Positions 1-24,564 of a stretch of DNA of 24,564 nucleotides are shown here, piece after piece. The stretch is from a virus. Lineage: Duplodnaviria > Heunggongvirae > Uroviricota > Caudoviricetes. The DNA lies in the IMG/VR virus record IMGVR_UViG_2740892233_000024, one strand, 5' to 3'. The notes below the pieces were generated by a model. That model was not told where the DNA came from. It saw only the letters and a program-made list of their open reading frames with translations, and ran no database searches. Within the stretch, counting starts at the first letter, position 1, and every line of letters starts with the position of its first letter. The position numbers and the translations under genes are program-made.

Positions 1-1164
1 TTACGCCTTCTTTATATCCTCCATAATTCCAGAGTGGGACATATTTGGGACATTATCACCAAAAATGTCGTCTATTTTCCTCGCATGCTCTGTCAAATGA
101 TTAGGCGCAAGGTGAGCATACCTACGAACCATTTCTATGGACTCCCATCCGCCCATTTCCTGAAGCACTGATAATGGGACGCCTGACTGAATCAGCCAGC
201 TTGCCCAGGTGTGTCTGAGGTCATGGAAACGGAAATCTTCAATTCCTGCACGACGACAAGCTGATAGCCATGATGTCTTGCTGTCGATGCGCATCTTCCT
301 GACCGCAGGCGTTGATGTTCCATCTGCTCGCTTAGCCGCCTTGGTATGTACAAACACCCATTTGTGATGCTTGCCTATTTGATCACGCAACACTTTACAG
401 GCGGTATCGTTCAGCGCCACACCAATGGCGCGGTTTGATTTGCTCTCTTCTGGATTCACCCAGGCAACTCGTCGCTGCATGTCGATTTGTTGCCATTCCA
501 GATTTATGATGTTCGACTTTCTCAGACCAGTTGCCAGCGCAAACTTGACGACAGATTTCAGTGGTTCGGGGCACTCATCAATAAGGCGTTTTGCTTCCTC
601 CTTTTCCAGCCATCTGACTCGCTTGTTTCTGACCGCTGGTATCTTGATGACAGGCGCTTTTTCCAGCCACTTCCAGTCGCGTTCTGCAGCACGGAGAATG
701 GCCTTTATCATGGCAAGATGCTTTGCCTTTGTCTGAGTTGATACTGGCTTTGGTTCATAAACAGGCGGTTCTTTACCTTTCCTGATGGCGGCCTGAACTT
801 TCTGTTTCCATATTTCTTTCGTCTTTCTGTTATGCATTCTGCTTACAGCAGAGTAAATCTTTGCCTCCGAGATATCTTTAAGCCTTATACCCTCAAAATG
901 TTCAAGCCAGAACTCAATCCGGCTTTTATCTGAATCGAGAGATTTTTTATCAGCTTTTTCCTCAAGCCATCTTAGGCAGGCCTCTTCAAAAGTGACATCA
1001 GGTAAATCCCCTAGCTTTTCTACTCGCCAGAGTTCTGCTTTTCGCTTGTCGTGCAACTCCTGAGCTTGCCGCTTGTCCTTTGTGCCAAGAGATTCCTTAA
1101 TTCGTTTCCCGCCCGGGAGCGAATACGAGGCATACCATATTTCATTTCTGCGGAAGAGTGACAT
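1..1164 (-). CDS. intD: Tyrosine integrase, DLP12 / phage-21-type (387 aa)
   Basis: 387-aa minus-strand ORF starting [24 protein letters not shown]-terminal catalytic region with R...HDLRHTWAS...Y motifs typical of tyrosine recombinases; matches my recollection of E. coli DLP12 IntD. Stop codon sits at the window edge, so the att site is outside the window. Confidence 0.92.
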
Positions 1165-1391
1165 TTTCTTTCCTCTGTTATGCCATCACCCGCGCTCACC
1201 TGGACAGTATGCAGCGGAGACTGAAGCGCCGCAATGCAGGCTTGCCGTGTTGTGAGGTAAGGAGATTTTGGCTTGGTTGGATCTTTACGTGTTGCCTGTA
1301 GGCGGCCTGTTCGTATCCAGTTGGTGGCGGTTGGTCTGGATATCTTAAGAAACTGACAGGCCTCATCGAGTGTGAGGCTGTATGATTCCAT
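1020..1391 (-). CDS. xis: Excisionase-like HTH protein; 3' part overlaps int and may be degenerate
   Basis: Start [31 protein letters not shown] preceded by GAGGTAA RBS; AlpA/Xis-like HTH; directly upstream of int on the same strand. The ORF runs about 145 nt into int, which is long for an excisionase. Confidence 0.55.
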
Positions 1392-1641
1392 GGTTACCTC
1401 TGCTTTTTGAACGCATGTCACGTAACTTCTTAATGTGTTCTGCCGTTTCGATCTCTTCTGCTATCCGATCTGCATCAGCTTTATTCACAGGTTCAAAGTC
1501 ATGATTAAAGCGGAACATGCTGGCGATACATGTTCTGCCTTTTCGGATGTAGTGAACTTTGTTGTGGGTAGAACGCAGGATTTTGCAGGGAGTGCCGTGG
1601 TGGTCGACGTACCAGGTGTTAGGAAAAATGATTCTGAACAT
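1363..1641 (-). CDS. Small phage protein (92 aa), paralog of the 3529..3825 ORF; possibly DUF1187-like
   Basis: GAGGTG RBS before the ATG; shares a conserved pattern (ILR..N.V.Y.R...RT...F...EHIKKLR) with the 98-aa ORF at 3529..3825. Confidence 0.5.
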   Translation of the reverse strand: MFRIIFPNTWYVDHHGTPCKILRSTHNKVHYIRKGRTCIASMFRFNHDFEPVNKADADRIAEEIETAEHIKKLRDMRSKSRGNHGIIQPHTR

Positions 1642-1727
1642 TTTTACACCTCAGTTGGACGATGTTGAAATTTGCTGCTTTGAGGCCATCACAGTCCCCA
1701 TTGTTTGTTCTTAAGTTCGATCTCCTC

Positions 1728-1907
1728 CTAGCAACTTGCACAAGTCCGACAACCCTGAACAGCCAGGCGTCTTCGCTCATCTATCGGATCGCCACACTCA
1801 CAACAATGAGTTGCGGATACAGTCTGGTAGTTCTGACGACGCATTTTTATTGCTGTATTGCGCTGTAATTCTTCGATTTCTGATGCTGAATCAATGATGT
1901 CTGCCAT
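1728..1907 (-). CDS. TraR/DksA-like C4 zinc-finger protein, truncated copy (59 aa)
   Basis: MADIIDSASEIEELQRNTAIKM...HCCECGDPIDERRRLAVQGCRTCASC; CxxC...CxxC pair; ends at a TAG that is absent from the 73-aa copy at 4795..5016. Confidence 0.55.
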   Translation of the reverse strand: MADIIDSASEIEELQRNTAIKMRRQNYQTVSATHCCECGDPIDERRRLAVQGCRTCASC

Positions 1908-2005
1908 CTTCCATTAATCCCTGAATTGTTGGTTAATACGCTTGAGGATGAATGCGAACAATAAAAAAGGAGCCTGTAGCTCCCTGATGATTTTGCTTTT
2001 CATGT

Positions 2006-2221
2006 TCACCGTTCCTTAAAGACGCCGTTTAACATGCCGATCGCCAGGCTTAAATGAGTCGGTGTGAATCCCATCAGCGTTACCGTTTCGCGGTGCTTCT
2101 TTAGTACGCTACGGCAAATGTCATCGACGTTTTTATCCGGAAAATGCTGTCTGGCTTTTTTGATTTCAGAATTAGCCTGACGGGCAATGCTGCGAAGGGC
2201 GTTTTCTTGCTGAGGTGTCAT
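2006..2221 (-). CDS. Small early-left-operon protein (71 aa from internal Met; ORF open to 2287), lambda orf61-region position
   Basis: Conserved in both copies (also 5115..5330); sits between the TraR-like gene and the orf63-like gene; start codon uncertain. Confidence 0.45.
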   Translation of the reverse strand: MTPQQENALRSIARQANSEIKKARQHFPDKNVDDICRSVLKKHRETVTLMGFTPTHLSLAIGMLNGVFKER

Positions 2222-2297
2222 TGAACAAGCCCCATGTCGGCAAGCATAAGCACACAGAATATGAAGCCCGCTGCCAGAAAAATGCATTCAGTGGTTG

Positions 2298-2489
2298 TCA
2301 TACCTGGTCTCTCTCATCTGCTTCTGCTTTCGCCACCATCATTTCCAGCTTTTGTGAAAGGGATGTGGCTAACGTATGAAATTCTTCGTCTGTTTCTACT
2401 GGTATTGGCACAAACCTGACTCCAATTTGAGCAAGGCTATGTGCCATCTCAATACTCGTTCTTAACTCAACAGGAGATGCTTTGTGCAT
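2298..2489 (-). CDS. Lambda orf63-like small protein (63 aa)
   Basis: 63-aa [40 protein letters not shown]...; size and position (two genes downstream of exo in the leftward operon) match lambda orf63. Confidence 0.55.
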   Translation of the reverse strand: MHKASPVELRTSIEMAHSLAQIGVRFVPIPVETDEEFHTLATSLSQKLEMMVAKAEADERDQV

Positions 2490-2650
2490 ACCGCCTCCCG
2501 TTTATTATTTATCTTCTCAGCCAGCCGCTGTGCTTTCAGTGGATTTCTGATAACAGAAAGGCCGGGAAATACCCAGCCTCGCTTTGTAACGGAGTAGACG
2601 AAAGTGATCGCGCCTACCCGGATATTATCGTGAGGATGCGTCATCGCCAT
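2462..2650 (-). CDS. Lambda orf60a-like small protein (60 aa from Met3)
   Basis: ORF directly downstream of exo and overlapping its stop; 60 residues when started at [10 protein letters not shown]. Confidence 0.5.
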
Positions 2651-23225: not shown

Positions 23226-23296
23226 ATGACATTTAAACATTATGATGTTGTCAGGGCGGCGTCGCCGTCAGACCTTGCGGAAAAGCTGACACACAA
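23226..23296 (+). pseudogene. Second copy of the 22912 ORF start (fragment, cut by an N run)
   Basis: MTFKHYDVVRAASPSDLAEKLTHK...; GGGAGG RBS. Confidence 0.45.
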
Positions 23297-23306
23297 NNNN
23301 NNNNNN
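23297..23306. other. N run (assembly gap or mask)
   Basis: Ten N. Confidence 0.99.
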
Positions 23307-23330
23307 ATCCAATGCCATGGCTTACGGTGA

Positions 23331-23619
23331 AGGGCTTACGGTGAAGGGCTTCCGCTGCCGGATTCATACGATGCTCCGGATCCGCGCATTAAACAGCTGG
23401 CGCGCCGCAGTACAGTTACGCCGGGCGGGGCTGCCTGCAGATATAACGATATTATTCCGGCTGACCACTGTCTGCATGATGTGCAGGATATGAGTACGCT
23501 GAATCATCCGAGGGCTGACCTGAGCAAAGGGCAGTACGGCTGTGTCGGCCAGGGTTTACATATTGCCAAAAAACTGCTCCCGTATATCCCGAATAACGCG
23601 GGGATCCTGCTGGTACCAT
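23331..23619 (+). CDS. Internal fragment of an unidentified ORF (about 96 codons open, bounded by N runs)
   Basis: Frame open from 23331 to the gap: ...LPLPDSYDAPDPRIKQLARRSTVTPGGAACRYNDIIPADHCLHDVQDMSTLNHPRADLSKGQYGCVGQGLHIAKKLLPYIPNNAGILLVP; no start or stop inside the contig piece. Confidence 0.3.
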
Positions 23620-23629
23620 NNNNNNNNNN
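23620..23629. other. N run (assembly gap or mask)
   Basis: Ten N. Confidence 0.99.
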
Positions 23630-23665
23630 ATGTTATTTCCTTCTATCATTTTCCTTGTGAGTTCT

Positions 23666-23692
23666 GGCTGCGCATGGCGCGGCCTTTTTTTT
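23666..23692 (+). terminator. Terminator hairpin, repeat copy C
   Basis: GGCTGCGC-ATG-GCGCGGCC followed by T8. Confidence 0.55.
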
Positions 23693-24100
23693 ATGACCTG
23701 CCACTGGCAGATGGTCATCCTGTGATTTGATTCCGGTTCCGGCTTTTTAACTCTGTTCCTGTACACGGGAGAAATTCTATGTCGATTAATCGTTATGATA
23801 TTGGTTACAAGAAGTACCACGTATTGTGTTGAGATAGAAAGCATGGTGCCAGAGGTAAATGCAGCAGCATAATAAAAAAGAGCCAGCGCAGAAGAGAACG
23901 GGTAAAAGAGTCTGCGCTGGCGTGGGGATATTCCCCGTGGAGAAATGATATGTAACACACATCGGGAACCTTTCTATATAAACATTATCATTATTGTCAA
24001 TCATAACAGTCAGGTATTATGACGTTTATGCATCAGGGCCATCAGGAATTAACTGGTGGCTTTTTATTGTTGTCAGCTTCCGGATAACGGGAGACGGGGT

Positions 24101-24316
24101 ATGTACCAGATGGAAAAAATAACAACAGGTGTGTCATACACCACGTCAGCGGTGGGGACGGGATACTGGCTACTGCAGTTGCTGGACAAAGTCTCCCCAT
24201 CCCAGTGGGTGGCAATAGGCGTATTGGGTAGCCTGGTGTTTGGCTTGCTGACGTATCTGACAAACCTTTATTTCAAGATTAAAGAAGATAAGCGTAAGGC
24301 TGCGAGAGGTGAATAA
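24101..24316 (+). CDS. Class II holin (phage 21 S-type pinholin) with dual-start motif, 71/68 aa
   Basis: [71 protein letters not shown] closely resembles S21; two in-frame Met codons three codons apart. Confidence 0.85.
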
Positions 24317-24564
24317 TGTCGCCATCATTACGCAAGGCTGTTGCTGCTGCTATTGGTGGTGGGGCTGTTGCCATAGCGTCTGTGCTCATCACTGGTCCGA
24401 GTGGTGACGATGGCCTGGAAGGTGTCAGCTACATACCATACGAAGATATCGTTGGCGTATGGACTGTATGTCACGGACACACCGGAAAAGACATCATTCC
24501 CGGTAAAACGTATACCAAAGCAGAATGCAAAGCACTCTTGAATAAAGACCTTGCCACTGTCGCC
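24316..24564 (+). CDS. SAR endolysin (phage 21 R-type lysozyme), 5' part; runs off the window
   Basis: [60 protein letters not shown]...; Gly/Ala-rich signal-anchor-release N-terminus; TAATG overlap with the holin. Confidence 0.85.

Follow-up and report, generated by a model that had tools for sequence, protein, structure and literature searches.

The IMG/VR virus record IMGVR_UViG_2740892233_000024 contains a stretch of 24,564 nucleotides (nt), here called the window, that resembles one lambdoid prophage running from integrase to lysis genes and is instead a walk through five or six prophages. Comparison of its sequence with closed genomes suggests that the window is very probably a chimeric short-read scaffold, an artefact of assembly and scaffolding, and not one physical prophage. 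All N in the window fall in nine runs of exactly ten (90 N in total), and these separate ten N-free segments that we call S1 to S10 (Table 1). An initial annotation had counted nine such runs, with correct positions for the three that it named, and had proposed a mixture of at least two related lambdoid prophages. That reading is supported and was understated; the segments map to five or six loci.

We compared the window with 5,426 closed Escherichia coli (E. coli) genomes, 50,697 phage records and IMG/VR contigs. The main reference was the genome of E. coli O26:H11 strain 11368 (NC_013361.1), and CP074961.1 and RM8426 were used as further closed O26 genomes. The loci compared in strain 11368 were the argU/intD prophage at 0.61 Mb (L004, the argU prophage), a lambda-like prophage at 3.10-3.14 Mb (L003, the 3.13-Mb prophage), a P22-like prophage at 3.27-3.31 Mb (L002) and the ybhC-adjacent prophage at 0.90 Mb (L007, the ybhC prophage). 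Those in O26 strain RM8426 were prophages at 1.76 Mb (L009) and 1.49 Mb (L010). The Stx1a-prophage locus (L005) and two further paralogous loci (L001 and L006) were also compared.

Prophage origin of the segments

Every segment has a counterpart of 99.7-100% identity in closed O26:H11-lineage genomes, at differing loci that are up to 2.5 Mb apart. Strain 11368 carries S1-S6, S9 and S10, and RM8426 carries S1, the right part of S5, S6, S7, S8 and S10. Each segment matches one of the prophages of these genomes at this level of identity, but in the closed genomes each prophage is an element of its own with its own place on the chromosome. The initial annotation had named a closed assembly with the exact order of the window as the result that would speak against it. 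We sought such an assembly and found none, as the best single place in the closed E. coli genomes covers 54% of the window. The best phage record covers 45%.

Table 1. Segments and runs of N along the window, with their content and reference matches. Positions are those of the window; locus names are given in the text.
Feature	Position	Content or relation of flanks	Reference match
S1	1-2999	argU/intD prophage; intD, helix-turn-helix (HTH) remnant, DUF4222, TraR, DUF1382, DUF1317, 3' part of exo	one mismatch to NC_013361.1 612,093-615,091 (L004); exact in CP074961.1
N run 1	3000-3009	non-collinear; exo interior / excisionase-like remnant, different prophages	
S2	3010-3387	3.13-Mb prophage, just inside xis	378/378 nt exact (L003, minus strand)
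N run 2	3388-3397	collinear; hides 12 nt (AAACCTTCATAG)	flanks 12 nt apart in L003
S3	3398-5833	3.13-Mb prophage; DUF4222, DUF551, ead/Ea22, TraR, DUF1382, DUF1317, 3' end of exo	2436/2436 nt exact (L003, minus strand)
N run 3	5834-5843	collinear; hides 102 nt, a repeat node common to the argU prophage	
S4	5844-6181	3.13-Mb prophage; exo interior, Pfam YqaJ	338/338 nt exact (L003, minus strand)
N run 4	6182-6191	collinear; hides 22 nt (TGTCAGGCCACTTCTTTCCTGA)	
S5	6192-17329		
S5, left part	6192-8725	3.13-Mb type; 5' end of exo, bet, gam, kil, cIII, DUF2528, hypothetical gene	
S5, switch block	8726-8850	125 nt	identical in reference prophages L003 and L002
S5, right part	8851-17329	P22-like; immunity region, O-like replication gene, DnaB, ninB-ninF, 5' half of ninG	
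N run 5	17330-17339	non-collinear; ninF followed by both of its alternative arms in series (ninG / antirepressor)	
S6	17340-22745	ybhC prophage; 3' end of ninF, KilAC antirepressor, DUF1364, RusA, NinH, LpxR, YlcG, Q, hypothetical gene, DUF3927	one mismatch to NC_013361.1 904,482-909,887 (L007); exact in CP074961.1
N run 6	22746-22755	non-collinear; backward step of ~140 nt; S7 opens with a paralogous arm that runs into the same trunk	
S7	22756-23126	upstream region and 5' end (Pfam DUF1737 domain) of nanS-p-like esterase gene	one mismatch to RM8426 1,760,136-1,760,506 (L009)
N run 7	23127-23136	non-collinear; backward step of ~300 nt into another paralogue	
S8	23137-23296	160-nt arm; esterase upstream region of another prophage	160/160 nt exact to RM8426 1,493,174-1,493,333 (L010)
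N run 8	23297-23306	flanks from different paralogues; read as collinear would hide ~130-144 nt	
S9	23307-23619	ybhC prophage; esterase gene interior	one mismatch to L007 22119-22431 (NC_013361.1 910,118-910,430)
N run 9	23620-23629	non-collinear; backward step of ~675 nt, prophage changes	
S10	23630-24564	3.10-3.14 Mb prophage; hypothetical gene, class II holin, 5' end of rrrD	935/935 nt exact to NC_013361.1 3,118,192-3,119,126 (L003)

The initial annotation held that gene order could not be trusted across the N runs. This stands for the six runs at 3000, 17330, 22746, 23127, 23297 and 23620. It does not stand for the runs at 3388, 5834 and 6182, where the flanks are collinear, the order can be trusted and the length alone is wrong (12, 102 and 22 nt are missing, respectively). 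These three lengths confirm that the runs do not preserve length, as had been proposed from the run at 5834, which was said to replace about 100 nt present in the paralogous copy; the closed reference has 102 nt there. The order across 8726-8850, inside S5, is uncertain.

The flanks of the run at 3000 lie in strain 11368 at 615,091 (+) and 3,137,509 (-), 2.52 Mb apart and on opposite strands, and both were not found in one place in any closed genome (the best cover, 89%, is S1 alone). The initial annotation described this junction as exo interior against an excisionase fragment, and protein domains agree. The left flank (2641-2997, (-)) covers the C-terminal portion of a lambda exonuclease/YqaJ gene and matches positions 87-149 of the 150 in the Pfam YqaJ profile (E 1e-12). 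The right flank (3010-3069, (-)) encodes what is left of an N-terminus of the HTH_17 (excisionase) type, with a weak score of 18.4 bits (E 0.003) that is under the Pfam cut-off. The paralogue of this remnant at 1326-1391 (-) passes the HTH_17 cut-off with 31.3 bits and is a truncated HTH gene in RefSeq.

The window carries the module from TraR to exo twice in series, at 1723-2999 and 4832-6016. When the window was compared with itself, 1723-2724 matched 4832-5833 (95.1%) and 2828-2999 matched 5845-6016 (98.3%). The 102 nt of the 3.13-Mb prophage that are hidden by the run at 5834 are identical to window positions 2725-2826 and to 9818-9919 of the argU prophage locus.

Both of the int-proximal arms bear a short excisionase-like N-terminal remnant of the HTH_17 type, at the two places given above. 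In the 3.13-Mb prophage this remnant is unannotated and lies just upstream of an intact lambda-type xis.

At 17330 the flanks map in strain 11368 to 3,289,424 (-) and 904,482 (+), which are 2.38 Mb apart and on opposite strands. To the left of the run, ninG is cut at position 103 of its 193-position profile (codon 106). To the right are the final ~60 nt of a second ninF and then a gene for a KilAC antirepressor. The pairing of ninG with a second ninF 3' end, noted in the initial annotation, is therefore correct, with 17341-17400 repeating 16954-17013 at 96.7% identity. The two arms are alternative continuations of a common ninB-ninF block: the ninG arm belongs to the P22-like prophage and the arm with the antirepressor, DUF1364 and rusA belongs to the ybhC prophage. 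Closed genomes show either ninF-ninG or ninF-ant-ninG and never a truncated ninG followed by a partial ninF and ant. We considered whether the window order is a variant of the natural ninF-ant-ninG order of Stx1 and other prophages. This was rejected, as the order is reversed, ninG is truncated and the two flanks are 99.9-100% identical to two different O26 prophages.

The KilAC/Rha antirepressor gene itself is a movable insert after ninF, at 17398-18120 (+) in the window, 9512-10234 in L005 and 22685-23407 in L006. In prophages of the Stx1 type and in others the next gene is ninG; in the ybhC type DUF1364-rusA comes next.

The right end of the window steps backward repeatedly over the region of the esterase gene. 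At the run at 22746, S6 ends at L007 21888 and the L007-type part of S7 begins at L007 21825; 22644-22745 and 22796-22896 are 95% identical. S7 is itself a hybrid, with its first 180 nt exact to L009, its last 294 nt exact to L007 and a 103-nt overlap common to both. S7 ends at L007 22118. The terminal 64 nt of S8 match 22919-22982 in S7, which is L007 21911-21974, and self-comparison likewise pairs 22919-22982 with 23233-23296. S8 also matches the Stx1a-prophage locus exactly over 159 nt. Its end corresponds to L010 4160 and to L007 21974, and S9 starts at the equivalent of L007 22119 or of about L010 4291. In the reference, S9 adjoins S7 without a gap (L007 22118|22119), and therefore S8 is an intruding arm.

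At the last run, S9 ends at L007 22431 and S10 begins at L003 19127, the paralogue of L007 21757. The two flanks are at 0.910 Mb and 3.119 Mb in NC_013361.1. Positions 23631-23760 repeat 22614-22742 at 96% identity. A stretch of ~130 nt downstream of DUF3927 and upstream of the esterase gene is present in the window in three copies (22614-22745, 22796-22936 and 23631-23803).

Contig ends and the assembly they point to

The segments end in a regular way. At the right ends of S1-S6, S9 and S10 (eight of the ten segments), exactly 64 terminal nt are common to a paralogue and the 65th base is not. As a control we examined 3,000 random positions, and an overlap of exactly 64 nt was seen at 21 of them (0.7%). 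The loci that share these ends differ from segment to segment: the last 64 nt are exactly common to L003 for S1, to L004 and L001 for both S3 and S4, to ninG of L003, L005 and L006 for S5, to L009 for S6, and to L005 and L009 for S9. The last 64 nt of S10 (24501-24564) are exactly common to the paralogous rrrD region of L004. Because these last bases carry the same signature as the internal contig ends, the window ends at a contig end.

The left ends of S2, S3, S4, S5, S6 and S10 are each the first base that separates the home prophage from a paralogue. The exact common block before the start is 218 nt for S2 (against L007), 76 nt for S3 (64 + 12 nt, against L007), 166 nt for S4, 86 nt for S5 (both against L004), 310 nt for S6 (against L002) and at least 400 nt for S10 (against L007). 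At the three collinear runs the hidden length is the block minus 64, that is 76-64 = 12, 166-64 = 102 and 86-64 = 22. The 64-nt signature implies a k of 65, and at this k the blocks of 166 and 86 nt are 102 and 22 k-mers, respectively. The length of the spacer is unrelated to the real gap, as all runs are 10 N where the real distances are 12, 102 and 22 nt or, for the other six, negative or undefined. The ends are also asymmetric, with a 64-nt overlap on the right and none on the left. All junctions show it alike, on whichever strand the home locus lies, so the asymmetry is a property of how the scaffold was written out.

These ends are best explained by a short-read de Bruijn-graph assembly, at k = 65, of an O26:H11-type E. 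coli genome that contains many near-identical lambdoid prophages. Wherever two prophages have 64 or more identical bases, the graph would contain a common repeat node at which contigs end. A scaffolder would then have set the contigs in a single line and bridged every break with a fixed or minimum spacer of 10 N. In three cases the contig that follows is truly the next piece of the same prophage, with the spacer replacing an omitted common node of 12, 102 or 22 k-mers. At the other six, parallel arms of the graph, which are alternative entries to or exits from a common trunk and come from different prophages, would have been set in series. The asymmetry would arise if the scaffold was written by concatenating node descriptors, each node giving the last base of its k-mers. 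A node written in this way would begin at its distinguishing base and the node before it would run k-1 bases past its own last one.

On this reading the window is a branching graph made linear. Two entry arms, one from the argU prophage (S1) and one from the 3.13-Mb prophage (S2-S3-S4), meet in exo. The trunk, S5, shifts from the 3.13-Mb type to the P22-like type at 8726-8850 and has two exit arms after ninF; one is its own tail with ninG, the other is S6. Beyond DUF3927, the head of S7 and the whole of S8, which are arms of two other prophages, are interleaved with the path of the ybhC prophage (S6, the tail of S7 and S9). S10 is an exit arm of the 3.13-Mb prophage, placed last in line.

The mapping, the hidden lengths and the pattern at the boundaries are observed, and we infer which assembler was used and what led the scaffolder to link these particular arms. 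Velvet, which uses the same node layout and writes gaps estimated at <10 bp as 10 N, is a candidate. The likenesses lie in the k-1 = 64 overlap retained at right ends, in left ends that open with the first discriminating base, in hidden lengths that match the skipped repeat node counted in k-mers, and in spacers that are always 10 N. The difference is that a 102-nt gap estimated from read pairs should not become 10 N. A literature statement of a 10-N minimum-gap convention was not found; the one match, on splitting at >10 N, was irrelevant.

The type switch in S5 and the rival explanations

One change of prophage type occurs within a segment. Positions 6192-8850 have two mismatches to the 3.13-Mb prophage, and 8222-17329 is 99.92% identical, without gaps, to NC_013361.1 3,289,424-3,298,531. 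S5 has the bases of the 3.13-Mb prophage at 8597, 8722 and 8725 and those of the P22-like prophage from 8851 onward. No closed E. coli genome contains an exact match to 8560-9010 (the best, 99.3%, is of the P22-like type) or the entire S5 (maximum cover 82%). Absence of the junction from closed genomes would fit a mis-threaded repeat node. We considered calling S5 a definite chimera on that basis, and withdrew this because the same 141 nt across the junction occur without a mismatch in IMG/VR contigs IMGVR_UViG_2671180846_000004 and IMGVR_UViG_2548876953_000012. One of these two covers 7384-9979 and has five mismatches, in a cluster; the other covers 8282-14824 and has two. A comparable junction of modules occurs, at 98.8% identity, in the closed genome CFSAN018748. 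Either the contig was threaded through two prophages here or the recombinant is real, and we regard the matter as roughly evenly balanced. That a lambda-type arm of exo-bet-gam-kil-cIII is really joined to a P22-like immunity and replication region is a possibility to which we give a little under an even chance. If so, the lineage would carry a recombinant prophage that is found in none of the closed E. coli genomes.

Several points weigh against reading the window as a scaffolding artefact. The switch in S5 lies inside one contig and its junction is also seen in two IMG/VR contigs that are independent of the window, so some changes of prophage type in the window may be genuine. The artefact is deduced by comparison with relatives and not from the strain's own reads. 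Estimates from read pairs should not turn 22 or 102 nt into 10 N, and therefore either the spacer was fixed or the estimates were poor. Lastly, we found no reason for S1 to stand ahead of S2.

Could the order nonetheless be physically real, with one mosaic prophage that has internal duplications and small unsequenced gaps at the N runs? Lambdoid prophages are highly mosaic, the succession of int, exo-bet-gam, immunity, replication, nin, Q and lysis genes reads like one phage, and three of the nine gaps are collinear. Against this, in all closed relatives the flanks of six gaps map to different prophages, at distances of up to 2.5 Mb, and genes are cut at non-homologous points (the exo interior meets an excisionase-like remnant, and codon 106 of ninG meets the 3' end of ninF). 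The contig ends carry the k-1 = 64 signature of a graph, and the order is absent from closed genomes and phage records. With its duplicates in series and with exo and ninG truncated at N runs, the window does not look like a single intact prophage, and we consider a real order extremely improbable. It is barely conceivable that the N runs are deliberate masks over real sequence of equal length. Their uniform length is what masking would give, but length-preserving masking is refuted by the 12, 102 and 22 nt that the reference has at the collinear gaps, and the flanks of the six other gaps are adjacent nowhere.

A mixture of strains, or a metagenome in which allelic prophages of different cells were combined, is very unlikely. 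The paralogous arms are 93-98% identical, a level that is also seen between alleles of different strains. All pieces, however, occur at 99.7-100% as separate prophages within single closed genomes and, because the loci coexist there, a mixture is not needed. A more credible alternative, though still an unlikely one, is that the contigs are true graph contigs that were ordered against a reference lambdoid prophage or genome and pasted together with a fixed 10-N spacer, and that paired-read scaffolding by the assembler itself had no part in the line-up. This agrees with spacers that are all 10 N whether the real distance is 12, 22 or 102 nt or negative, and with contigs that stand roughly in the order of a single int-to-lysis reference with paralogous contigs stacked side by side. 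It agrees less well with the asymmetric ends, which fit direct writing from graph nodes, since independent contigs joined afterwards should still have the overlap on either side. In addition, S10 would sort ahead of S7 by its start position on the ybhC prophage. Ordering against a reference would leave the conclusion that the window is an artefact unchanged.

Neighbouring features and use of the record

Other features of the window were seen during this comparison. S5 contains, at 7717-7775 (-), the cIII thermoregulator RNA of lambda (Rfam RF01804) at full length (88.5 bits) at the 5' end of cIII. In strain 11368 the ybhC prophage has an IS3-family insertion in the gene that lies between ninE and ninF (L007 14905-16118). 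The nin block of the window is without it (at 16645), consistent with the P22-like type. In S6, an LpxR-family lipid A deacylase gene, named by annotation transfer from NC_013361.1, is reverse-strand cargo at 19166-20125 (-); its neighbours are a remnant of a truncated antiterminator, which comes after ninH, and the Q gene of the ybhC-type prophage. Scans of the window for transfer RNAs and Rfam families gave nothing that bears on the N runs.

The start of the window coincides with the stop codon of intD, and it was therefore probably cut at a gene boundary. We also considered that the start is the boundary of a repeat node, such as an attachment (att) core duplicated at the other end of the prophage. 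This was rejected, as no second copy of the sequence upstream of the start was found in 75 kb of the reference.

It is well known that lambdoid prophages are fragmented and cross-contaminated in short-read assemblies of Shiga-toxin-producing E. coli, and the window is no departure from this. Repetitive regions fragment the assemblies of pathogenic E. coli (PMC6667211), and hybrid positions and excess coverage have been ascribed to other lambdoid prophages (PMC6119250). As in short-read assemblies of Shiga-toxin-producing and enterohaemorrhagic E. coli, there are many near-identical lambdoid prophages, contigs break at the blocks they have in common, and reads from other lambdoid prophages contaminate any one reconstruction. 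The window differs from those assemblies in that the fragments are stitched with 10-N spacers into one pseudo-prophage, so that the record looks contiguous.

The value of these results is practical and not biological. The order across six of the nine N runs is unfit for prophage typing, synteny, the context of morons or cargo genes, and inference of attachment sites. Gene calls that cross N runs, such as exo at 5753-6326 and a hypothetical gene at 3068-3410, are wrong in length. Such scaffolds can be spotted quickly, and their k recovered, from the exact 64-nt signature at contig ends, with no need for reads. For the element itself, the intD/argU integrase at the left end is not of the same prophage as the replication, Q and lysis modules further to the right.

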